DNA of 64,000 nt, taken from contig JAHFJM010000004.1 of the NCBI GenBank assembly GCA_023245935.1, positions 13,924-77,923 of the forward strand, read 5' to 3'. Below are positions 15,608 through 38,883 of the stretch, piece by piece. Each line of letters begins with the position of its first letter. The stretch's first letter is position 1. Under the pieces are notes generated by a model. It was not told the origin of the DNA. It did not search any database and saw only the letters and a list, made by a program, of their open reading frames with translations. A program made the position numbers and the translations under genes. Origin of the DNA: Candidatus Peribacteria bacterium. Its GTDB lineage: Bacteria; Patescibacteriota; Gracilibacteria; Peribacterales; Peribacteraceae.

Positions 15608-15709
15608 AAAGTCACTGAAAATAGCGATGAGTTCCGATGTTCATATTCCATTTTCTTTTTGAAGACTCTTGTCTATCATTGTTCAGCTTATTTTCTCCCC
15701 TCGCAGAGT

Positions 15710-16480
15710 ATGGCAACAAAAGAACAACAGCAGAACGTATGGTTCGGTCTCTCGATGTTCCTCGGCGGCATGATCGTCGGCGTCATCCTCGTTGGTGCAA
15801 GCGGCATCAGCCCTTTCGGAAAAGGTCAGCCTGCTCCGAGCGGTCAGCCTTCGCCGACGGCACCGAATGCTCCGGAAGCTCCGACGGCAAATCTTCAGGA
15901 CACCATTCTCGGATTTGCACGCACAGTCGGTCTCGATGAGGCAAAGTTCACCGGTTGTCTCGCGGCAGACAAGTTCAAGCAGATGTTCACAGATGAGGAG
16001 GCGGCAGGTCAGACGGCCGGAGTGAACGGCACACCCGGAAATATTCTGATCGACATGAAGACCGGCAATGCCAGACTGCTCTCCGGCGCGCAGCCGTTCG
16101 AGGTCTTCCAGAAGAACATCGACGAAATGCTCAAGAATCCGACGGCGAAGAGCACGGATCCAGCAACCCCTCAGGCGACGAATGTCGTTCCGGTCGATCT
16201 CGAGAAAGATCACGTCCGAGGCTCCAAAACGGCACGTCTGGCACTGATCGAATACTCCGACTACCAGTGTCCGTTCTGTCACCGTGTTCACCCGACATTG
16301 GAGCAAATGATGCAGAAGTATGACGGAAAAGTTGTTTGGGTCTACAGACACTTCCCTCTCAGTTTCCATCCGAATGCAATTCCTCTCGCAACAGCTGCCG
16401 AGTGCGCGAATGAAATTGGCGGAACGGATGCGTTCTGGAGTTTCACTGATGAGGTCATGGCGAGTGATAATGTAAATTGA
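15710..16480 (+). CDS. DsbA-family thioredoxin-fold thiol:disulfide oxidoreductase, membrane-anchored
   Basis: An N-terminal TM and a Pro/Ala linker precede the CPFC active site (YSDYQCPFCHRVHP) and a DsbA-like C-terminal part. ATG is at 15710. Confidence 0.8.
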   Translation: MATKEQQQNVWFGLSMFLGGMIVGVILVGASGISPFGKGQPAPSGQPSPTAPNAPEAPTANLQDTILGFARTVGLDEAKFTGCLAADKFKQMFTDEEAAGQTAGVNGTPGNILIDMKTGNARLLSGAQPFEVFQKNIDEMLKNPTAKSTDPATPQATNVVPVDLEKDHVRGSKTARLALIEYSDYQCPFCHRVHPTLEQMMQKYDGKVVWVYRHFPLSFHPNAIPLATAAECANEIGGTDAFWSFTDEVMASDNVN

Positions 16481-24932: not shown

Positions 24933-27900
24933 TTACGAACGTCTCAGGAATCTCCTCCTCGCAAGCCCAATGCCGGCTGCTGCGCCGGTGACGATGAAGA
25001 TCACCATACCCGGACCTTCCTGTGACCGCGCTGGAGTCGGAACTTTCGTCACTTGATCGAAAGCATCTGCAGAGCTTCGGACCCCTTGCGGAGGAATCAG
25101 CGTTCCGACAACCGGAGACGCGGGATGCACCGCTCTCCTGCAGGCGTGATCGCACCCGTCACCGTCGAACGTGTCTCCGGTGTCACACTCCTCATTCACC
25201 GCGACGACTCCGTCGCCGCAGTACGGCAGCTGGCAATTGTCGAGACACCGCGTCGATGCATAGTTCCCGTTGTTGATCCCCGTGTCGCACTGCTCGTACG
25301 GTGAATCGATGACGCCATTGCCGCATTGCGGAACCCTCACCACTCGGCAGAGTACCGTGCAATGCGAAGAAGGCTGACCGTTGAGAGGTCCATCGTCACA
25401 CTGCTCACCGGATCCGCTGTTGATTTGTCCGTCACCGCAGGTACCGTTTTCGACCTTGCATTGCGCGCTGCAACCGTCTCCATCGATGGCATTCGAATCA
25501 TCACACTCTTCTCCCGCATCGATTGCTCCGTTGCCGCAAGTGGTGACCGTCAGGATCTGACAGGTAGTCGTGCAGTTCTGATTGATTTGTCCGTTGAGAG
25601 AGCCAAGATCACATTTCTCCCCCGCTTGCTGTATTCCATCACCGCAGTAGGCAATACTCGAAGCAGGGTACTGATTCTCGCTGGAAGATTGCTGGAAATT
25701 TTGCGAAGGATTTGAGGGGAAACTCGCGATAAATTGACTCGAGCTCGAGGTATCTTTCAAGCTTTGGCAGCACACCTCCGACTGCGAACAATTGCCGAGG
25801 GTCTGAGAGTACGGACACTCCTGGAAGGGAACGCAGGAAGAACCCGTGGGGCAGGTCAGATCACTTGAACTGCTTGAACTCGAGGAGGAATCGAGAGAAC
25901 TTGAGGAGCTCGGCACGGCACCCTGGCAACACACTCCGGTATCCGAACAGGCACCGACTGTGCTCTCCGGCGTGCATTCGTAATAGTTGACGCAAGCGGA
26001 ACCGCCCGGGCAGACGGAATCCGGAACACTCGATGATGAGGACTGCGATCCGCACACCGCGGGACAGGACACTCTCGAATCCCAACATGACCAGCTGCCA
26101 TCCGGACAACAAATCGCTTTATCTTCGCATGCAGGCTTGTTTCCAATGCTGCAGGCTGGAGAGAGAGAACTGGAACTTGAGCTCGAATTTTCACTGCTCG
26201 AAGAAGAACTTGAGGACGAACTGCTGAACGAGGAAGAAGAGGAGCTGCTCACACTGTTGACACTTGAACTGGATGAAGAACTCGAGGAGGGAACAATGGG
26301 AGGGAAGGTGGACGTGCTGTTGCAGGTGTACACCATTGCTCTCGACAGGGAAACGAATCGTACGCAGCCCTGTCCGCAGCTCACCGGCGTGGTTGCCCAG
26401 TGAATGTACTCGGGGAAAGAAACAGACGTATCCTGGCAGAGCGGTTCAGAGGGCGAAGCAGTCATTGCGATCGCATCAATATATTCCTGCCTGTCTTTGT
26501 CCGTGAGATCGGCCGGATCGAAGGAGTAATAGTCGGGATAGTAGGTGCTGTTATAACCGCCCAGTGACGTACTGCTGCGCGTGCATGTGCCCGAAATCGC
26601 AAAGGGACTGATCGAATACTGAACGCCCTGCCATGTGCAGATGTGATCCGGTCCATCCATCGAAACAGGCTGCCATCCGATTTTTGGGAGAGCCTGTGCA
26701 GTGCAGACAAACGGATTCACGTGTCTGCACGCAATGTCGGGGCTCTTGCATGTAGTCGCAAATCCTCTTCCTCCAAGAGACACGAATCTGGCACAGTTTG
26801 GTCCGCAGCTCACAGGCGCAGTCGCCCAGCTGACATCGTGATTGAATGAGACAACGGAACCCGAGCAGGCCGGGGGGGAGCTTTGAACAACATTGAGAAT
26901 CAGATTTTTCATTTGAGTTCTGTCCGGATCCGTCGCATCATTTTTGGCGAAGCTCATGAAATCGGGAACCGTGGGAGGCGTACATGTGCCTGCTTCTTGA
27001 AAGGGATTGAGTGTGAAACGTTTTCCAGTCGCAGTACAAGCGGCATTCGGTCCGTCCATCGAGACAAAATCAACATTGTGCGTGCTTTCGCGGATGCACC
27101 CGATCGGATCGATGGCGGTGCAGGACGACGTGATGTCGCCTCTCAGGATCGATGATCCTCCCGAAATGGCATCTGTGAAACTCCTGATCAAACCGGTCAC
27201 CCAATGCCACACGCCGCTGCCACCGGTTGAAACGGACGAGTTGGAAGTTCCCGGTATCAAGGACCCGAGAAGATTTCCTCCAAGCGTCGAGCTGCTTGCA
27301 CTGTCAACGGCAATTCCATTCACGGCAGGATCCCAGCACATCCAACTGCCGTCGCCGCAGCAGTATGCGTACGCATCGCCGGTGCAGACCGGGGCAACGC
27401 CCTGACATCCTGCGCCGTCGATGAATGAAGATGACGAAGAGGAACTTGAAACACTCGATGTGTTTTGGCAGCAGACTCCGGTCTCCGAACAGACATCAAT
27501 GGTTTGTTCCGGCGTGCATTCGAAGAAGTCGACGCAGGAAGAGTCTTCGGGGCAAGCAGATTGCTCACTGGAAGAAATGCTGCTCTCGCTTGAAGCGCTT
27601 GAACCGTTGTTGCAACAAACGCTGTCGAATGAGCAGGCATCACCGGTATTGTCGGGAGTGCAATCAAAGAAATACTTGCAGGAAGATCCGGACGGACAAC
27701 TGCTGCTCGTGACGCTTGAAGACAAGCTGCTTGTATTGGAACTGACCGACGAACGGGAAGAAACTGCGGAACTTGCGAGTGAAGAACTCGCACTGAATCC
27801 TGAGCTTGCAGAACCGGAACGACTGCTGCTCACACTCGAGCCGGCAGAGAAACTGGAAGAAACCGAAGAACTTGAAACGCTTGATGTGTTTTGGCAGCAG

Positions 27901-30900
27901 ACTTCGAGCGACGAACACTCGCCCACCGTGTGATCCTGATCACAATCGAAGAAGTAGACGCAGGAAGAATCAGCGGGACACCCCGCACTGCTTGAACTAT
28001 TCGAACTCATGCTGCTCTGTGATCGTGAGGATACGACAGAAGATTTCGAGGAACCAACGGAGCTTTGCACGGAGCTCGTAGAAAGGCTGGATCCCGCAGA
28101 ACCGGAACGAGAACTGGAAACGCTCGATGATGTGTTTTGGCAGCAGACTTCCAGTTGAGAACATGCGCCAAGGGTCTGTTCGGGATTACAATCGAAGAAA
28201 TATTTGCAGGAAGAATCGGACGGGCATGCTTCGCTGCTCGAACTCATGCTGTTCTGTGATTGTGAAGAGACAACCGAAGATACCGAACCGGCGGAGCGAC
28301 TGGATCCGGCAGAACCGGAACGGGAGCTGCTTGAATTGGATCTGATCGAAGAAATGGAAGAAACAGAGGAATTCGATGATCCTCCACCGGAGCAAGTACC
28401 GGGACACTGAAGTGTCAGATCCTGACAGGACCAAGTGCCGTCCGGACAGCAGAAGAGCGTGTTTTGGCACTGCGGCTTCGTTGCATCGGAACAGAAGCCT
28501 GCATCAGAACTTGAGGATAGGGAGGAAGAATTTCCGGAAGAAGAATTGTTGGAGGAAGAAGAACTCTTCAAAGACGAACGCGAACTGCTGCGAGAACGGG
28601 GAGAGCTTGAGGAAGAGCAGTACGTAAACCCGGCGACTGCAGCACGGAAGTCACGAGACAGAGCATCCTTGTCTGCAGCGTACCGTGCGTCCAAAGCAGA
28701 GAGCCCGGCTTGGATCTCCGTAGGCACACGTGTTTTGGGATCGATCCCCCTGGCCTGCCAGTAACCGACATCGACTTTGTACAGAACATACACGCTGTTG
28801 ATCGTACTGTTATAGGCAGTGTCCAATGCTGTGCGAATGGTTCCATAGTCCTTCGTCATCGCGACGATTGAGACGCACGCATTCGGAAACGTATAATGCT
28901 CGACCGGACAATTCGCGGGGAATGCGCCAATTGCGGTAAGAAAGTCGCGAGAGAGAGCGGCTGTATCCTGAGCATACTTTCCATCCACAGCAACAAGCAC
29001 CGTCTGAACATCCGCAGGCAAACGTGTTTTGGGATCGATCCCCCTGGCCTGCCAGTAGCCGACATCGATTTTGTACAGAACATACACGCTGTTGATCGTA
29101 CTGTTATACGTATCAGTCAGTGTTTTTTTCGCAGCGGCAAAGTCAGTGATCGAATCGATAACGGGTACACACTCGGTCGGAGGAGGGGGAGGCGGAGGGC
29201 AACTGCTCGATGGGAAGGCGGCAACCGCGGCACGGAAGTCACGATTGAGAGCCGCTGTATCTGCAGTGTACCTTGTGCTGAGAGCCGCAAGAGCAGTCTT
29301 GATCTCTGCGGGCAGAAAGAATTCCGGATTGTTGCGATTCTGAACGCCGTAGGTGGCATAGATGGAATTTGCATTCGTGCTGTACGCATTTGAGAGCGTT
29401 TTCGTTTCTGCGTTGTATTCCTCAGTCATCGCAACAACGGACACGCATGAATTCGTAAACGTATAGCTCTCCACGGGACAATTCGTCGGGAATGCGCCGA
29501 TAGCTGCAAGAAAGTTGCGAGAGAGAGCAGCTGTATCTGCGGCGTACTTCTTATCCATCGCATCGAGCGAAGCCTTGACCTCTGCGCTCAGAAAGAATCT
29601 TGGATTGTCGCGGTTTTGAACACCGTAAATGGCGTACACATTGTAGATTGCGGTGTTGTAGGTACTGGCAAGCGTTTTGCTTGCTGCAGCGTAGCTGGCG
29701 ACTGAGCTTGCGATAGGAACGCACTCGGTTGGCGGAGGGGGAACAGGACAGTCTCCGGGAAGCGTGGCGAGTGCAGCGTTCAAATCATGAGAGAGCGCAT
29801 CCTTATCCGCAGCGTACTTGCTGTCCACGGCGGCGAGTGCTGCATCGACCTCTGCACCGATGAAGATTCTTGGAACATGGTCTGCGTACGTCGCAGGATT
29901 ATAAGGATGGTAGATGGCATACAATTGCAGAATCGAATTGCGGTATGCAGTGTCCATCGCTTTGCGCTTTTCAGCGTAGACACGCATCATGTCGACCGCC
30001 GACACTCCGCATGTATCTGGGAACACAGTGCTTTGTGTGGGACAATTCAGAGGAAACGCAGCGAGGGCTGCAAACAAGTCATTGGAGAGAGCAGCCGTAT
30101 CTGCGGCGTACTTCCCGTCCAACACCGCGAGGATGGCATCGACCTCTGCACTGATGAAGATTCTTGGAACATGGTCTGCGTACGTCGCAGGATTATAAGG
30201 ATGGTAGATGGCATACAATTGCAGAATCGAATTGCGGTATGCAGTGTCCATCGCTTTGCGTTTCGCACCGTACTCACTCATCGAATCGACAACTTGCACG
30301 CAAGTATTCTGCGGAGAAGCGACTCCTCCCGTGAGATCTCCTTTCAAGGTGTCACCCGCTCCATTGAAGATGCTTCCAAAGAAATGCAGAACGCTTTTGC
30401 CAAGATCGATGATCCACTGCATCAGGCCTGAACCGGACTGATTCGATGCGAGCGCTGTTTTGTGACCTCCGAAGAGCAAGTTCCCTCCTAGGATTGATCC
30501 CCCACCGGGAGCCTCGTCGACGATGAGACCGTTCACCGAAGGATCGAAACACATCCAATTTCCGTTGCCGCAGCAATATGCATACGAATTGCCGGAACAC
30601 ACGGGCTCTGCGTCGCCGCACCCGGTAATGCTGGAGCTGAGGCTGCTGGCCGAAGAACAAGACTCCGGACCGCAGGAGATCACGCAACCATTCGCACCGA
30701 AAACCATCGAGGAAAAAGTACATCCGGGTCCCGGGTCGCAGACGAGACATGAGGAAGATTTCGAAGAACTGGACACCTTCGAATTGTTGCTATTCGCTGA
30801 CGAAGATGAACTGGACGGAGGATCGGTACAATCCCGATTCAATGAATTCCGCGCCGTGATGTAGTTTCGATGCAAGGCATCCAGATTGGCTAGGTAGGTA

Positions 30901-33900
30901 TTGTACAGAGAAGTGCGTGAAGTTGCGTAGTCTCTGTCCAGAGCCGCACGGGCAGCAGTGAAGGTGCGATACAAAGCGTCGTTTGAGGCGGCGAAAGTTC
31001 GGTCCAGGGTATCGCGGGCGGCGGTATAGTCACGAGTGATGATCGAGCGAGAGCTTTGATAGCTTTTCTCCAAGGTGGCGCTCGATGCGAGGTACGTGTT
31101 TTTGAGCGTCGCGAGAGTGTTTTGGTAGATCGTGAGCCTCGAAGCGGCAGTCGAGGTGACATAGGTCTGGTACGCTGCATTGATCGCATCGATGTAGTTG
31201 GTTTCCAGCGTATTCCTTGACGTTTGGTACGTACTCAGAAGAGCATTGAGCGACGCAGTGTTCTTGGTCTCGAGGGCATTGCGCGCCGCCTCGTGCGACG
31301 AAAGCAATGCATTGCGATCGGTATTGTATTTGGCGAGCAAAGCGTTTCCGGACGTTTCGTACGCAGTCGTCGCATCATCCCTGGACGCATTGTACTTGGC
31401 GTCGAGGGCGGCAACCGCTGCAGCATAGTTTCGGTCGAGGGCAGCGAATTGATCGCTACAATCACCAGGCTCGGAGCTTGCGGAAGAGCGGGAAGAAGAG
31501 AGTGAGGACGAGGACGAAGGACAAGGCAACGCCTGGAAAACTCCGTCGCAGTAATATCCGTCCTCTTGGCTCGAAGAGGAGGAAGAACCGGAAGAGACGG
31601 GCTGGCATGAAGCGAATGCGCAGTTCGGTCCCGTGCGAGCGACGTAACTGCCATCGGGACACTGCAAGACATCGAGCTCACATACCTGCGGTCGGCTGCT
31701 TGAGAGAGAGGAAGCGGAGGAGAACGACGAAGGCGCTGACGAAGAGAGCGAAGAAGAGGAAGGCTCCGGAATGCACTGCAAGTTAAGTTCTGCGAGTGCA
31801 GTATTGTAATTACGGTCAAGCACCGAGCGTGTGGCAGTGTATGACGACCGCAAGGCATCATACGAGAGTGCATACTCGTTTTTAGCGCGAACGCGTGAAA
31901 TCTGATACTCACGGTTTAAAGTGCTCAGCGCCGTTTGCCATTCAATGCGCGCGTCATCGAAGACACTATTGACCCAATGGGTACCTAGCTGGCTCGAATA
32001 CGCGTAGTATCCATGGTACTTTTTGTAGAGTGCATTCGTTGATACAGAGTACTCATTCTGGATGCGAGCAAGCGTTTCATCGTACGTCTTCTTCCCATCC
32101 CTCAGCGCAGCCTGGTACTCGCTATCGAGTTGAGCACCCTTCGCCTCGTAGGTTTTCGTGAGTGCCCTCGACGACACAATGTTCTTGCTTTCCAGCTGAC
32201 TGCGAATCGAGGCGTAGATACCGTTCAATTTCCGTACCAAATCATTGTACTGCCAGACTAAAGTCTGACTCTCTGATTGATACTGAATACCAAGAGCATG
32301 CTGAGCATCGGAGTATTTCCTTTCCAAAGCATAGAGCAAATTACCATACTTCGTTTTGAGCTTATTTCGATCAGAGCTGTACTTGTAACCGAGTTGCCGG
32401 ATCGTGTAGGCATTGCCATCCGAAGCATCGAGGGAAGCAAGGTAGCTCGCCGTCAGTGCGTCAAACTCCGTTTTGTACTGCGCATTGAAGGAATCACGCG
32501 AGGCAGTGTACTGCTCGTAGAGCGTGATGAGCGATGCGGCAAGCTGACTGTCCATGGCATCTCTGGAAGCGACAAAGTTGCTGTCCAGCTTTGCAAGCTC
32601 CGCTGCTTGTTTGCTCTCCATCGCAGCGAGTGCGTCGTCGTAGGGACGTTTCAAAGCGGCGAGCGCTGCTTGGTACTCCTTCTCCAATGCAGCAGCGGAA
32701 GCAAGGTAATTTTTGTAGAGATTCGCCTTCCATGTCGCAAAATCCCCGAGGGAAGCAATCGCAGTATTGTAGGCACTGCGCAACGCTGCACTCGCAGCAG
32801 TGTATTCGACCTGCAACGCCGCAACCTTGGCTTTGTACCTATCGTATAAAGCTGTTCTTGCGATGGGGTAATCCCGATCGAGAATTGCAAGCGAGGTGTT
32901 GTAGTCACGGAGAAGATTGGCAAAGAGCACTGCGTATTTTGCGTCCAGTGCGGCAATCGCTGCCGTGTAATCGCGCAGTAACGCAGCGCGCAGAGCATCG
33001 CATTCTTCTTTCGTATAGTGCGAACTGCTGGAGCTTGAAGATCGCACAGAACTTGCAGAGCTTGAGGAAGCAACAGAGCAGGTAACATCGGCTATGCATG
33101 CTCCGGCAGCGCACACACCGGAGCCGCACGCTGTCGGATCGATGGCTGTGCACTTCGTTCCTTCGTTCACATAGCAACTGCCGCCATTCAAATAGGATCC
33201 CTGCGGACACTGCCCATTGATTGCGCTGACCGTGCAGCTGACGACCGGGGAGGCCGATGAAGACGTGAGAAAATTCGCACATCCTCTGGCATCGTACGTG
33301 CAGTACTGACCGACTTTGCAGCAGTGAACCGGACCACCCGTGCAGGTGATTTGATCGAAGGCACACGCCTGCGGTGCACACTTGCCACCTGAGCAGTTAT
33401 TGCTACAGCAGCCCGGAGTCATCGGCGTCACGAAGCCGTCGTTCATACAGCATGGACCGGCAATTGCAGGACAGGCAGCTCCGTCCTGCAAGCAAAGACC
33501 GGCACAGAGCGGGACTCCTGTCGGACAGATTCGACTGGATGAAGAAGAGAAGGTTAACCCGCATGCTGCAGTACAGGCTCCAAGAGTGTCAAACACCGGC
33601 TGCCCGGAACAGAGCGAGGAATTCGACTGCTGCATGCAAGTGGGAGGAGCGTGCTGCAGGTGATCGCAGCAGTACACGGATTGAGTCGGCGTAATGACAG
33701 GTCCGCAGAGTGTGACGTTGCTTGCCAAGGCGGTTGCACAATTCTGCGTCGCAAAGTACGTGCCTGACTTCACCGCGCATGCCGACGACGTGATAAGTTC
33801 ACATGCATGTGCGGAGCAACATGCAGAGAGCGGACAGTCTGCATGACAGGAGTCATTGGTTTCTCCGGCATCGCAAATTCCATTCTGGTTGCATGTGGTG

Positions 33901-34208
33901 GACAACGGACATTCAGCCGGGCAGAGAGCATTCGTCTCTCCGGGTTCGCAGATGCCATTCATATTGCATGCTGTTCCGCCCGTACCGCATCCCTGTCCTG
34001 CGCAATCGGAACAGCCGCTCGTGCACTCCTGTGCCGAATCGCAGACACCGTTTAAGTTGCATGTAATACTGCATCCGGGCGTTCCGACGATACAGCCCTT
34101 CAGTTTTGAAGGATTCCGCAACACATTCGATTGCAGAAGAACGATCGTCATCACGAGCCCGAGAAGCGCACCGATCAGAAGCCTCAGGGGGAACTTTATT
34201 GGCATCAT
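24933..34208 (-). CDS. Giant (3,091 aa) Cys-rich, Ser-tract-rich modular cell-surface protein with N-terminal signal/anchor and C-terminal TM + Arg-rich tail
   Basis: This is a single uninterrupted ORF with the N-terminus [25 protein letters not shown]. It has internally repeated modules (see the repeat features) and myxo-type Cys repeats. The C-terminus is [27 protein letters not shown]. All other-frame ORFs inside it are low-complexity shadows. Confidence 0.85.
   Translation of the reverse strand: [3091 protein letters not shown]
25137..25646 (-). repeat. Five myxo-type cysteine-rich repeats (CG[DN]G...E.CD.G..N......C...C), aa 2855-3024 of the giant protein
   Basis: An example is [27 protein letters not shown]. 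This is the pattern of the Myxococcus cysteine-rich repeat (myxo_disulf_rpt / DUF4215-like). Confidence 0.75.
25767..26012 (-). repeat. 6-Cys knot modules K5-K6 (aa 2733-2814)
   Basis: The modules are [29 protein letters not shown] and [29 protein letters not shown], with spacing C-x5-C-x5-C-x8-C-x5-CC. Confidence 0.8.
27468..28226 (-). repeat. 6-Cys knot modules K1-K4 separated by Ser-rich linkers (aa 1995-2247)
   Basis: The modules are [87 protein letters not shown] and [29 protein letters not shown]. Confidence 0.85.
28617..30302 (-). repeat. Six tandem ~95-98-aa repeats (aa 1303-1864) arranged as three pairs
   Basis: Each unit starts with C(V/G)..(V/A) and ends with ..FP..CP. Pair R1/R2 shares a 125-nt DNA block (29842-29966 vs 30136-30260, 1 mismatch). 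Pair R5/R6 shares an 87-nt block (28728-28814 vs 29022-29108, 2 mismatches). Both blocks are offset by exactly 294 nt. Confidence 0.85.
30828..31460 (-). repeat. Hendecad (11-residue) Tyr/Ala repeat region B (aa 917-1127)
   Basis: Aromatic residues lie at 928, 939, 950, 961, (972 H), 994, 1005, 1016, then 1028, 1039, 1050, 1061, 1072, 1083, 1094, 1105 and 1116. Confidence 0.8.
31773..33011 (-). repeat. Hendecad (11-residue) Tyr/Ala repeat region A (aa 400-812)
   Basis: Tyr lies at 414, 425, 436, 447, 458, 469 and 480, then at 501, 512 and 523. F545, L556, Y567, Y578 and Y589 follow. Y621 to Y731 are spaced by 11 with one gap, and Y768, 779, 790 and 801 complete the series. The motif is roughly (L)D..Y..A..AL. 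Confidence 0.85.
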
Positions 34209-35638: not shown

Positions 35639-37267
35639 CTATTCTGCTCTGCACAACTTGCTGCAACCGTCACCGGATTTCGTGTTCTTATCGTCACACT
35701 GCTCACCGGTATCGATCGTCCCATTGCCGCAGACTGCCGCATGAAGACCGCGGAGCGTGGTGAGGAGGAGAATCAAGTCCTTCCGATCCACGGCACCGTC
35801 ATTATTCAGGTCATTTCTGAGATTTTTGATTTTCATGTCCTGGAACATCATCGTGATTCCCCTGTACATCTCGCTGTTGCTTAGCACACCGCTTCGATCG
35901 ACGTCGAGAGCGGTCAGAATACGAGCGACTAAGGGAGCGATTGGAGCTACGACGAGCGGAGGAGGCAACGCTACTGCAGTGCAAAGGGGAAGAAGTGGTG
36001 ACGGAGCCTTGCACAACCAAGGGAACGGCGGCGGTCCCGGTGGTGGGTGGAGAGGGCAATTACCGAAATGATGCGGACAGTAGTAGTACGCCTCAAGTAC
36101 GCCATGATCCCCGGCAATAATGCCCGCGTCCGGTCCATCGCATTTAATGTACTTTGCCGGTGTCTCGTTGACGCCAATGCACGTGCCCGGTCCTCCGCAT
36201 GTGTTTTCACAAAGTGTCTTAAAGCTGTTCATGTAGGGACCAAGAATAGCGCAGTCGATGGTGATCGGTGGCGTGTTACCCGGTGGAAGTGGAGTCGTAG
36301 GTGGGGGAACTTGTGGCGGATAGCCGGGATAGCCGAGTGCGACCGTGCACCTCTTTTGCATACAATTTGCACTGCAGCCGTCTTGGACAACGGCACACGC
36401 TCCTGTACCGGGGCAGTCTGCAGCGACGCTGCACTGCTTCCCTAAATCCGGAGGACCATTCGGACAATGCTTTCCATTGTCACAGACTTCCGGTGCAGTG
36501 ACGATTCCGTCTCCACAAGCGACGGTGCAGACACTGGTGGAAGTAGCGAGTGGAAGATTTTCACAAGACCAACCGTTCTGAATATTGCAGGCTGCAGTAC
36601 ACCCGTCTCCATTCGTGTTGTTGCCGTCGTCACAGGCTTCATCGTCTCCGCCACCCGGAGCATTGTCTTGGCCATTGGCATCTCTGTATCCGTCTCCGCA
36701 TGATTCGGTTTTGCAAATGTTACTGCAGCCATCTCCGGAAACGGTATTCCCGTCGTCACACTCCTCCGGAGCCACTGTGGCATTGTCTCCACAGGAGCCA
36801 ATCGGTACGCATGTAGTGCCAACGCAGACAGTAACTCCCGGGTTACACATCGGTGGAGTGCAAGCAGACACGCACGTTCCTGATAAGCACGTTCCACAAC
36901 AAGGAGGCTTTTCGGTGGAAGGCATTGGTCCGACGCAGCAAGCGGTCGTCGCTCCCGGAGAAAGGCAGCTGGTGCTACCGTCAGGTCTGCACGTTGAGGC
37001 ATTTCCACACGTGGGAATCGTGACGTCGGGACACGGTCCAAGGAAAGTGCATATTGCAGGAGAACCAAGACACACCGCCGGCGCAATGCAATTCGATGTG
37101 TTGCAAGCGAACACGCATCCTGTAGATGGACAAACAATGCCTCTCAGAGACGTTGTATTTGAGAAGAGCGATGACTTGATGATAAGAACAACCACCAAAA
37201 GAACGGTCGGAACTACGAGAGCTGTGACACGGATAGCAGTGGATGAGTGCTTCGAGAAATGCTTCAT
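35639..37267 (-). CDS. N-anchored Cys-rich surface protein (542 aa) with myxo-type Cys repeats and a dockerin-like EF-hand pair
   Basis: The N-terminus MKHFSKHSSTAIRVTALVVPTVLLVVVLII is paralogous to the neighbour. The repeats CGDNATVAPEECDDGNTVSGDGCSNIC, ACDDGNNTNGDGCTAAC and CGNGTIDTGEQCDDKNTKSGDGCSKLC are present. The loops DVDRSGVLSNSE and DLNNDGAVDRKD lie at aa 455-497. Confidence 0.75.
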   Translation of the reverse strand: MKHFSKHSSTAIRVTALVVPTVLLVVVLIIKSSLFSNTTSLRGIVCPSTGCVFACNTSNCIAPAVCLGSPAICTFLGPCPDVTIPTCGNASTCRPDGSTSCLSPGATTACCVGPMPSTEKPPCCGTCLSGTCVSACTPPMCNPGVTVCVGTTCVPIGSCGDNATVAPEECDDGNTVSGDGCSNICKTESCGDGYRDANGQDNAPGGGDDEACDDGNNTNGDGCTAACNIQNGWSCENLPLATSTSVCTVACGDGIVTAPEVCDNGKHCPNGPPDLGKQCSVAADCPGTGACAVVQDGCSANCMQKRCTVALGYPGYPPQVPPPTTPLPPGNTPPITIDCAILGPYMNSFKTLCENTCGGPGTCIGVNETPAKYIKCDGPDAGIIAGDHGVLEAYYYCPHHFGNCPLHPPPGPPPFPWLCKAPSPLLPLCTAVALPPPLVVAPIAPLVARILTALDVDRSGVLSNSEMYRGITMMFQDMKIKNLRNDLNNDGAVDRKDLILLLTTLRGLHAAVCGNGTIDTGEQCDDKNTKSGDGCSKLCRAE

Positions 37268-37362
37268 ACAATTATCTTCATCCTAAAGGTTGCGCACTTC
37301 CTGAAGCAATACGATCTTCTCAGAATTTGGTTTTTGGAATTTTTCGTCTTACACTGCCGTCC

Positions 37363-38883
37363 ATGATCAGAAAAAGCACATCAGACGAGAAAAAAAAACC
37401 GTCCCACGTGTGGCTGTATGCGTTGTTCGTCCTCGTGACGTCGTTCTTCACGTACATGTACCGCTACGACTTCCCGCCGAATCCTTTCTGGGATGAGCCG
37501 TACCACATCGTCTCCGCTCAGAAGTACCTGAACGGAGTCTTCTTCATGGAGCAGCATCCTCCGCTTGGGAAACTGTTCATCGCTCTGGGAGAAAAGATCG
37601 TGCACGGAAATGCACGGAACGATCAGTTCCTGACGACCGACTACGCAAACAATATTCCGAACGGTTTCAACTTCGCGGGATACCGACTCTTCCCGACACT
37701 GTTCGCGTGGCTCACTGCACCAGTGCTCTTCTTCATCTTTCTCTTCATCACGGGAAGCAGTCCCCTCTCCGCACTCCTTTCTTTCCTCTACGTCTTCGAC
37801 AATGCAGAGATCGTCCACAGCCGCGGCGCGATGGTGGACAGCACACTGACGTTCTTCGGAATGCTCTGCGTGCTGCTCTTCCTCCATCTCCAGCGAAGAG
37901 AAAGGAAGGTCACGCTGAAGAAGCATTGCATTCTCTCGCTTCTCCTCGGCGTATCGTTCGGGCTTGCAATGGCGACGAAAGTCATCGCACTCATCTTCAT
38001 CCTGCTCTTCCCGCTGATCATCCTGCGCCTGCTCCCCGATTGGAGAAAAGTCACGCTCTTCTGTGTTCTCAGCATGGTAGGAATGATGACAATGTACGTC
38101 AGTGTCTGGCAGATTCACTTCTCACTCGGGAAGAGAGTCGTGCCCGAACTCCCCGATAACGGGTATTACCAGGCATCGAGCGAGCTGAAGACGATTCTCA
38201 GTTCGCATGCGCAGAACACATTGTCGTCATTCCCCGTGATGCTTCGCGATCACCTGCTGTTCGCACCGCACTACAACAGAGGAGTGCCGCGTCTCGACCT
38301 GTGCAAGAAAGATGAGAACGGAAGCCCCTCGTACTTCTGGCCGTTCGGGGCACGGTCGATCAACTATCGCTGGCAACAGGAGAATGAGAATGCGTATCGC
38401 TATCTCTACCTCGTGAGCAATCCCGTCGCATGGGGGCTTGGGCTGCTTGGCATTTTATTGACTGCCGTTCTTCTGATCGGCTCACAACTTTTCACAGTCA
38501 AAGAAAAACTGCAGCAGCCGTTTCTGCTTCTGTCGTTTTTTGGCATCTACTGCTCATACATGATTGCAATCAGCCGCATCACGCGTGTGATGTACCTCTA
38601 CCACTATTTCCTGCCTCTCCTGTTCAGCTTCATTCTGTTTTCGCTCGTCCTCATCAATATCCGAACCATCGGACGGTACAGAGTCACCGATGATCGGCGC
38701 ATCGTCTTCATGACGATTCTCGGTCTTCTGATCTTCGGTGCATTCCAATTCATGAGGCCGCTCACCTATTACGAGCCGCTGACCGACAGTGCATTCAAGA
38801 AACGAGCAATCGTGACCATGTGGGAATTGACCTGTGTCCGTTGCCAGAAACTCAGTTGGCTTGTGGTGCCGACCGGGAATTAG
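37363..38883 (+). CDS. Dolichyl/polyprenyl-phosphate-mannose protein O-mannosyltransferase (GT39, PMT family)
   Basis: The loop-1 DE motif (FWDEPYHIVSAQKYL), the HPPLGK motif and about 10 TM helices are present. The start is set at the ATG at 37363 (MIRKSTSDEKKKPSHVWLY...). The gene is divergent from the 542-aa gene across a 95-nt spacer. Confidence 0.8.
   Translation: MIRKSTSDEKKKPSHVWLYALFVLVTSFFTYMYRYDFPPNPFWDEPYHIVSAQKYLNGVFFMEQHPPLGKLFIALGEKIVHGNARNDQFLTTDYANNIPNGFNFAGYRLFPTLFAWLTAPVLFFIFLFITGSSPLSALLSFLYVFDNAEIVHSRGAMVDSTLTFFGMLCVLLFLHLQRRERKVTLKKHCILSLLLGVSFGLAMATKVIALIFILLFPLIILRLLPDWRKVTLFCVLSMVGMMTMYVSVWQIHFSLGKRVVPELPDNGYYQASSELKTILSSHAQNTLSSFPVMLRDHLLFAPHYNRGVPRLDLCKKDENGSPSYFWPFGARSINYRWQQENENAYRYLYLVSNPVAWGLGLLGILLTAVLLIGSQLFTVKEKLQQPFLLLSFFGIYCSYMIAISRITRVMYLYHYFLPLLFSFILFSLVLINIRTIGRYRVTDDRRIVFMTILGLLIFGAFQFMRPLTYYEPLTDSAFKKRAIVTMWELTCVRCQKLSWLVVPTGN

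Follow-up and report, generated by a model that had tools for sequence, protein, structure and literature searches.

Tyrosine hendecads in a giant Peribacteria protein

The DNA analysed here (the window; 64,000 nucleotides (nt) from a Candidatus Peribacteria bacterium, assembly GCA_023245935.1, contig JAHFJM010000004.1, positions 13,924 to 77,923 of the forward strand) contains an open reading frame (ORF) for a putative mosaic surface protein of 3,091 amino acids (aa), within which lie two long arrays of 11-residue (hendecad) repeats, block 1 (aa 403-812) and block 2 (aa 917-1127). The protein has an N-terminal hydrophobic signal or anchor and, at its other end, a transmembrane helix followed by an Arg-rich tail. 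Most of its 176 Cys fall within small knot-like modules with Ser-rich linkers between them, and its C-terminal part carries myxo-type Cys-rich acidic repeats. When the full-length protein and the separate blocks were compared with Pfam, NCBIfam and PHROGs, the only family matches were to these myxo repeats (TIGR02232) and DUF4215. The features considered below are located in Table 1.

Table 1. Position of the gene, its modules and neighbouring genes in the window, with the evidence used to delimit each.
Feature	Residues	Window position	Strand	Basis
Whole gene, putative mosaic surface protein		24933..34208	(-)	ORF and translation; TIGR02232, 4.1e-17; DUF4215; Cys map
Hendecad block 1	aa 403-812 (C403...C812)	31773..33002	(-)	AlphaFold2 helices aa 400-595, 600-730 and 744-810
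Tip turn of block 1, between Y589 and Y610	aa 596-599 (SDGN)	32412..32423	(-)	AlphaFold2 break, model residues 202-205
Bulge or loop in arm 2 of block 1	aa 731-743 (YHGYYAYSSQLGT)	31980..32018	(-)	AlphaFold2 non-helical, model residues 337-349, low pLDDT
Small domain with four Cys, separating the two blocks	aa 843-868 (C..D...CPDGS.V.R.GP.C.F..C)	31605..31682	(-)	phmmer
Hendecad block 2	aa 917-1127 (C917...C1127)	30828..31460	(-)	AlphaFold2 helices aa 916-1018 and 1024-1128, pLDDT 90-97
Tip turn of block 2, at the exact midpoint of the C917-C1127 span	aa 1019-1023 (STAAS)	31140..31154	(-)	AlphaFold2 break, model residues 115-119
Six short paralogous modules	aa 1303-1864	28617..30302	(-)	Cys positions, alignment A2, AlphaFold2 secondary structure
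DsbA-like thiol-disulfide oxidoreductase ORF		15659..16480	(+)	PF13462 at 16202-16471, 52.1 bits, above cut-off
GT39 protein O-mannosyltransferase gene		37243..38883	(+)	PF02366, 3.7e-33; PF16192, 1.8e-15; divergent from the surface-protein operon

An earlier reading made from the DNA letters and their translations (the sequence-only reading) had reported about 600 residues of strict Tyr/Ala hendecad periodicity at 30828-33011. On the minus strand this interval matches aa 400-1127 of the ORF, and every Tyr and Phe position listed by that reading is correct. The periodicity itself is strong: lag-11 aromatic pairs amounted to 25/49 in block 1 (aa 404-811; 5.6±2.1 in 5,000 shuffles, maximum 14) and to 13/20 in block 2 (aa 918-1126; 1.7±1.2, maximum 7), above the shuffle maxima. 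A Fourier analysis, proposed as a check of the same claim, gave peaks of aromatic power at 3.65-3.7, 5.45-5.55 and ~11 residues and not at 3.5, with peak values of 18.4 in block 1 (shuffle maximum 9.7) and 15.9 in block 2 (shuffle maximum 11.1), the signals at 11, 5.5 and 3.67 rising above those of the shuffles. Throughout both blocks, the 11/3 signal exceeded the 7/2 signal in 66-residue sliding windows. The description of the region as Ala-rich and Pro-poor also holds, Ala making up 17-19% of both blocks and Pro occurring twice in the 408 residues of block 1 and not at all in the 209 of block 2.

The consensus of 49 in-register units is Y-x-A-S/A-R/L-A/D/N-A-L-D-R-x. Position 1 is Y in 41 units (84%) and F in 3 (Y/F 90%), position 8 is L in 38 (78%), positions 3, 4, 6 and 7 are rich in Ala and Ser, positions 9-11 are polar or charged, and Arg occupies one third of position-5 sites. 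Mapped onto an 11/3 helix, positions 8, 1 and 5 form a narrow stripe flanked by positions 4 and 9, the remaining positions being Ala or polar. The blocks contain no DNA tandem repeat with a period of 33 nt; the hendecad pattern is therefore maintained at the protein level and is not the product of a recent duplication.

Cysteine placement, central turns and predicted fold

Each block has Ser-rich linkers on both sides and contains exactly two Cys, located at its extreme ends (403/812 and 917/1127). The spacing from these Cys to the nearest repeat Tyr is exactly 11 in all four cases (C403 to Y414, Y801 to C812, C917 to Y928 and Y1116 to C1127), and each Cys thus holds the core position of the first or last hendecad. 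Register shifts are found at 480/490 (-1), 589/610 (spacing 21), 731/757 (+4) and 1016/1028 (+1), and the main discontinuity of each block is central, with core positions equal in number on both sides.

Structures were predicted with AlphaFold2 (AF2) for single chains, from the single sequence without an alignment. Turns had been called from the Cys positions ahead of these predictions (midpoint 1022; ~598 and 1016-1028), and AF2 gave 1019-1023 and 596-599. Block 2 was predicted as two helices of 103 and 105 residues joined by a 5-residue turn, with a predicted local distance difference test (pLDDT) score of 90-97, while in block 1 the score was 89-95 around the turn at 596-599 and averaged 66.6 overall. 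In these models, the hendecad helices are packed as a hairpin.

When the register of block 2 is set by its Cys (i+j=2044), each of the nine position-1 residues in arm 1 lies opposite its arm-2 counterpart, and 7/9 of these rungs are aromatic-aromatic, the global maximum over all registers; in the same register every L8 lies opposite a position 5. With 10 core positions in each arm, block 2 is most likely, on the predicted model, an antiparallel hairpin of ~15 nm with nine Tyr-position rungs and one Cys rung per arm. In block 1, the count of Tyr facing Tyr rises locally to 7 where i+j=1199 (centre 599.5), and a shift by one hendecad (1210) gives 8. In a rung table running from C403-C812 and Y414-Y801 to Y589-Y610, 18 core positions of arm 1 pair one-to-one with 18 of arm 2, which requires a one-residue skip at 480/490 plus a bulge of ~15 residues at 731-743; the bulge absorbs the ~15 extra residues of arm 2, and i+j changes from 1200 to 1215 across it. 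Block 1 is predicted, as its most likely form, to be an antiparallel two-helix hairpin of ~29 nm with 18 core rungs per arm.

Six short modules further along the chain share the same rhythm. Each starts and finishes with a Cys, the two lying 82-88 residues apart, carries the motif Y-x10-Y / LDxKYAADTAAL and is predicted by AF2 as helix-loop-helix, with pLDDT below 50. Their similarity to block 1 is weak (E 2.9e-7), and they resemble the long hairpins in miniature.

Among the Foldseek matches to the block-2 model, the best superposition was on 4ke2_A, the crystal structure of Maxi (template modelling (TM) score 0.80, root-mean-square deviation (rmsd) 2.7 Å, 193 columns), the straight hendecad hairpin fold being shared between a predicted model on one side and a crystal structure on the other. 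Heptad hairpins from chemoreceptors and SMC proteins gave rmsd values >8 Å. Maxi is a hyperactive type I antifreeze protein of the winter flounder with TX10 repeats, 3.7 residues per turn and a hairpin fold (PMC5304152). Its ~195-residue chain, like block 2 in its predicted form, doubles back halfway to give a straight antiparallel hairpin of ~15 nm with 11-residue repeats, but the two are not homologous in sequence (18% identity; Foldseek E 0.09). The cores also differ: Maxi has TX10 repeats, >60% Ala and a water-filled core, whereas the blocks have Tyr at position 1, 17-19% Ala and a core of Tyr and Leu. Maxi, moreover, dimerises to a four-helix bundle, lacks a disulfide clasp and is a free ice-binding plasma protein, whereas the present hairpins would be modules of a membrane-anchored bacterial giant. 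SMC and Rad50 arms and chemoreceptor hairpins, also found among the Foldseek matches, are likewise long antiparallel two-helix rods made from one chain, and SMC arms also have an elbow; they differ in being heptad-based, supercoiled and cytoplasmic, with functional domains at both ends and no homology to the blocks.

Proposed hairpin rods and competing arrangements

The sequence-only reading had interpreted the region as a non-canonical coiled-coil stalk that, if fully helical, would project a Cys-rich head tens of nanometres from the cell. A non-canonical hendecad helical assembly is borne out by the 11/3 period, the all-helical AF2 predictions and the Y1/L8/(L,R)5 core stripe; the extended stalk is not, and the central breaks, equal arms, terminal core Cys and AF2 hairpins oppose a head raised in this way. 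We consider it probable, on the predicted models, that the hendecad blocks fold as intramolecular antiparallel hairpins, taken as a family of models. Further points in favour are the mirror symmetry of the arms, the helix-loop-helix form predicted for the six short modules, the superposition of block 2 on Maxi and the presence of DsbA-like genes. Each block would be an autonomous hairpin in which a near-straight 11/3 helix runs outward, reverses at the central turn (SDGN at 596-599 or STAAS at 1019-1023) and returns as a second helix. The interface would be a ladder in which Tyr meets Tyr at position 1, and Leu at position 8 meets the Leu or Arg that occupies position 5 in the other arm; the open end would be closed by a C403-C812 or C917-C1127 disulfide, with Cys replacing Tyr in the terminal hendecads.

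The result would be two rigid monomeric rods, one of ~29 nm (bulged at 731-743 and possibly with an elbow at G488/G705) and one of ~15 nm, together with the six miniatures at aa 1303-1864, where the rod lengths are estimates computed at 1.5 Å per residue. The two ends of a hairpin lie side by side, so that such a rod would point away from the chain and add no length between head and membrane; since the rods would not raise the head, the reach of the protein would have to come from its probably glycosylated Ser linkers. We therefore picture rods that protrude from a chain whose length is supplied by Ser-rich, probably O-mannosylated linkers. Such rods may serve as rigid struts or spikes, and the protein that bears them would be a glycosylated attachment or coat protein, anchored in the membrane of a host-dependent Peribacteria cell and variable between strains. 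This role is our best guess, drawn from architecture and lineage biology alone.

The lineage offers a context for such a protein. Peribacteria (Candidatus Peribacter riflensis) are reported to encode large extracellular, Cys-rich, strain-variable proteins proposed for attachment, which resemble the present one in being >1,000 aa long and very Cys-rich, with a signal peptide and weak similarity to myxo repeats, but for which no hendecad or helical modules were described (PMC4736985). The protein studied here fits this class in its 3,091 aa, N-terminal signal, 176 Cys and TIGR02232 match, and the module variation typical of the class is seen in a same-genus orthologue without the helical blocks (in genome G002; see below).

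Several points weigh against the hairpin reading. A single-chain AF2 prediction without an alignment cannot show a parallel oligomer and so folds back at any break, and its confidence in block 1 is low over aa 447-488 and aa 719-759. A form folded into four helices would suit block 1 just as well, and core-position Cys at both ends would also suit the inter-chain disulfides of a parallel dimer. Tyr facing Tyr at one level of a two-helix interface is an unusual packing, and the model rests on one orphan sequence for which homologues were not found.

The strongest competitor, which we nevertheless regard as unlikely, is a parallel homo-oligomeric hendecad stalk of two to four chains side by side, with a Tyr/Leu core and inter-chain disulfides at the block ends. 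Such a stalk would carry the Cys-rich head at the N-terminus outward by as much as ~60 nm plus 30 nm. The model for such an arrangement is tetrabrachion, the Staphylothermus marinus stalk, a cell-surface protein with hendecad hydrophobic periodicity and long Pro-free helices. A true 11/3 period across ~620 residues and long, almost Pro-free helices are what a stalk of this kind calls for, the core-position Cys could serve as inter-chain staples, and a prediction confined to monomers is no test of oligomers. However, the tetrabrachion tetramer is parallel, has an aliphatic core and makes no central turn, whereas the blocks show mirror symmetry around a turn and have a Cys at both ends. The main discontinuity of a block falls exactly in its middle, leaving the same number of rungs in both arms, and at the centre of block 2 AF2 sets a confident non-helical turn. 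The narrow core stripe, with Arg in 1/3 of position-5 sites, is poor for trimers or tetramers. The composition of the protein also argues against a stalk, in that its remainder is a string of small monomeric disulfide knots on Ser linkers and its six short modules are clearly helix-loop-helix units.

An improbable variant concerns block 1 only, and would bend the 29-nm hairpin at a matched elbow (G488 in arm 1, G705 in arm 2) to give a compact up-down-up-down four-helix bundle with helices of ~105 residues, ~15 nm long and closed by C403-C812. GD or DG dipeptides recur at 488-489, 597-598 and 704-705, with spacings of 109 and 107 that compare with the block 2 arms of 103 and 105 residues; residues 480-501 resemble the tip turn at 589-610 (a Tyr spacing of 21, a GD/DG centre and an L.YK.Y-type end); and the stretch of arm 1 with the lowest AF2 confidence ends at residue 488. 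The dipeptide spacing of ~108, close to the length of a block 2 arm, and the likeness of 480-501 to a tip turn are what make a ~15-nm bundle possible. Yet the AF2 helices continue through 488 and 705, the Tyr phase is unbroken at 705, and the first of the four helices would fall ~20 residues short of the others.

Surface-exposed amphipathic 11-mer helices of the apolipoprotein, synuclein or perilipin type, contacting or stripping host membranes, are very unlikely here. In their favour, an 11-residue period is the hallmark of membrane-surface helices, Peribacteria are without fatty-acid synthesis (PMC4736985), and a hendecad relative described below (P0014) has a weak, sub-threshold Apolipoprotein match. 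We discount a lipid-binding role because the protein has no match to the Apolipoprotein family (PF01442) even at E<=1, because Pro-punctuated 22-mers are absent (2 Pro in block 1, none in block 2), because the hydrophobic stripe consists just of positions 1, 5 and 8, one of them often Arg, with the rest Ala or polar, and because a hairpin clasped at both ends would block the opening needed for lipid.

A related long shot is that the Tyr-ladder rods are working devices, either touching host membranes or extracting lipid for a bacterium unable to synthesise fatty acids, or else pairing with each other in a Maxi-like clasp of four helices, by which a surface fibre would have its length set or switched; block 2 and the distal half of block 1 have nine rungs each, which is the basis for a possible block-block pairing. 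If true, rods of either device type would make up a functionally new class of hendecad hairpin, one with its origin in a single species. Readings of another kind were rejected outright: recent repeat expansion by the absence of a DNA repeat, a disordered low-complexity region by the strong pattern together with confident helix prediction, and a beta-solenoid by a region rich in Ala and Leu and poor in Gly and Pro.

To our knowledge, long hendecad assemblies are rare, and Maxi is the one solved long hendecad hairpin among the structural matches. The Tyr-ladder module with its putative disulfide clasp is an undescribed orphan, within a known class of genes and with one solved precedent for its structural principle. 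If the hairpin reading is true, one bacterial protein would hold Tyr-cored, disulfide-clasped rods of two lengths plus six miniatures, a compact case of nature building straight helical rods to a defined length that could interest coiled-coil designers. The value of this example is limited by an orphan sequence, an uncultured organism and structural statements that are all predictions.

Relatives, module turnover and genomic setting

Searches for relatives of the hendecads were largely negative. No homologue of aa 917-1127 or aa 1296-1866 was found in a collection of 5.8 billion protein clusters, no relative in JGI metagenome contigs and no meaningful match for the hendecads in the PDB, either by phmmer or with a repeat profile, where no coiled-coil chain was significant. 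Block 1 was found in 0/40 related genomes, the short-module profile (A2) in 0/150 genomes of the class and the hendecad profile (A1) in 0/400 genomes of the phylum; in its own genome, the hendecad profile matched this gene alone. A literature search on Tyr hendecads and on giant proteins of Patescibacteria returned nothing specific.

A phmmer search with aa 400-1127 against 1.84 billion representative sequences gave 680 matches, and nearly all of the best 150 aligned at query positions ~410-500 (best stretch mostly ~440-475). Among these best 150, the small 4-Cys domain between the blocks (~28 residues) is the sole part of the query with many relatives elsewhere, and the hendecads themselves were touched by P0014 and P0126 only, at the level of the repeat. 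The 4-Cys domain forms long tandem arrays in many unrelated secreted proteins (P0002-P0006 and P0010), some of them eukaryotic-looking; Pfam gave no family match for P0002.

P0014, the top-scoring match to the hendecads among the same 150 (71.8 bits, 26% identity over 260 residues), is a 2,614-aa metagenomic protein from the representative library in which a DUF3570 outer-membrane barrel carries an insertion of ~1,750 residues, with Y/F-L hendecad arms at ~aa 265-950 and 1290-1850 around a non-periodic central domain. Because both arms and the central domain are inserted in one barrel, the arms must run antiparallel, which gives the hairpin reading a precedent in nature; the insertion would be a fold-back stalk of possibly 70-80 nm, apparently undescribed. 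P0014 resembles the blocks in its L-D-x-x-Y/F-x6-L rhythm and antiparallel arms but differs in having no Cys clasp, a globular domain at the tip and arms of ~500 residues; the similarity may be convergent and repeat-driven. P0126, a 221-aa singleton from ENA, consists in its C-terminal half of nine near-perfect DYQAALAPLDR hendecads, a motif shared with the window, and has a weak PHROG match to a DNA-ejection pilot protein (9.6e-7).

A syntenic orthologue from the same genus (locus L019, 3980-10375 on the minus strand of contig 4 of genome G002; >2,131 aa, its sequence broken by stretches of N) has knots, D1 domain, myxo repeats and tail in common with the present protein, and is without a helical block. 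The place of the helical blocks is taken by Gly-Ser (GISGVSG) repeats and further globular Cys domains. Judged from these two sequences, the module content of this gene turns over within the genus, which for the biology of the candidate phyla radiation (CPR) would mean that giant strain-variable surface proteins of Peribacteria can acquire whole new structural modules within a genus.

The neighbourhood of the gene holds two further Cys-rich genes, a divergent gene for a GT39 protein O-mannosyltransferase and then a pyruvate kinase gene, the product of which is 85% identical to its counterpart in an uncultured Candidatus Peribacteria metagenome-assembled genome. The pairing of surface-protein and GT39 genes recurs at the same-genus locus L019, and the GT39 enzyme likely glycosylates the Ser-rich linkers flanking the rods, which are plausible substrates.

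A DsbA-like oxidoreductase is a prerequisite for extracytoplasmic disulfides, and the genome (1.22 Mb, 99% complete) encodes three such proteins, one of them inside the window; no VKOR was found in the genome. A DsbA-like trio without VKOR bears on how so Cys-rich a proteome is oxidised in a 1.2-Mb genome.

A further duplicated unit is present in the same protein, at aa 1197-1302 (window 30303-30620, minus strand) and at aa 2268-2360 (27129-27407, minus strand), and comprises a 5-Cys motif (C.......C.......CC......C), a Gly-rich stretch and an amphipathic helix (GLMQWIIDLGKSVLHFF and GVWHWVTGLIRSF, respectively). As the Cys count is odd, one thiol per unit is left unpaired. The 5-Cys unit is found in the G002 orthologue as well.

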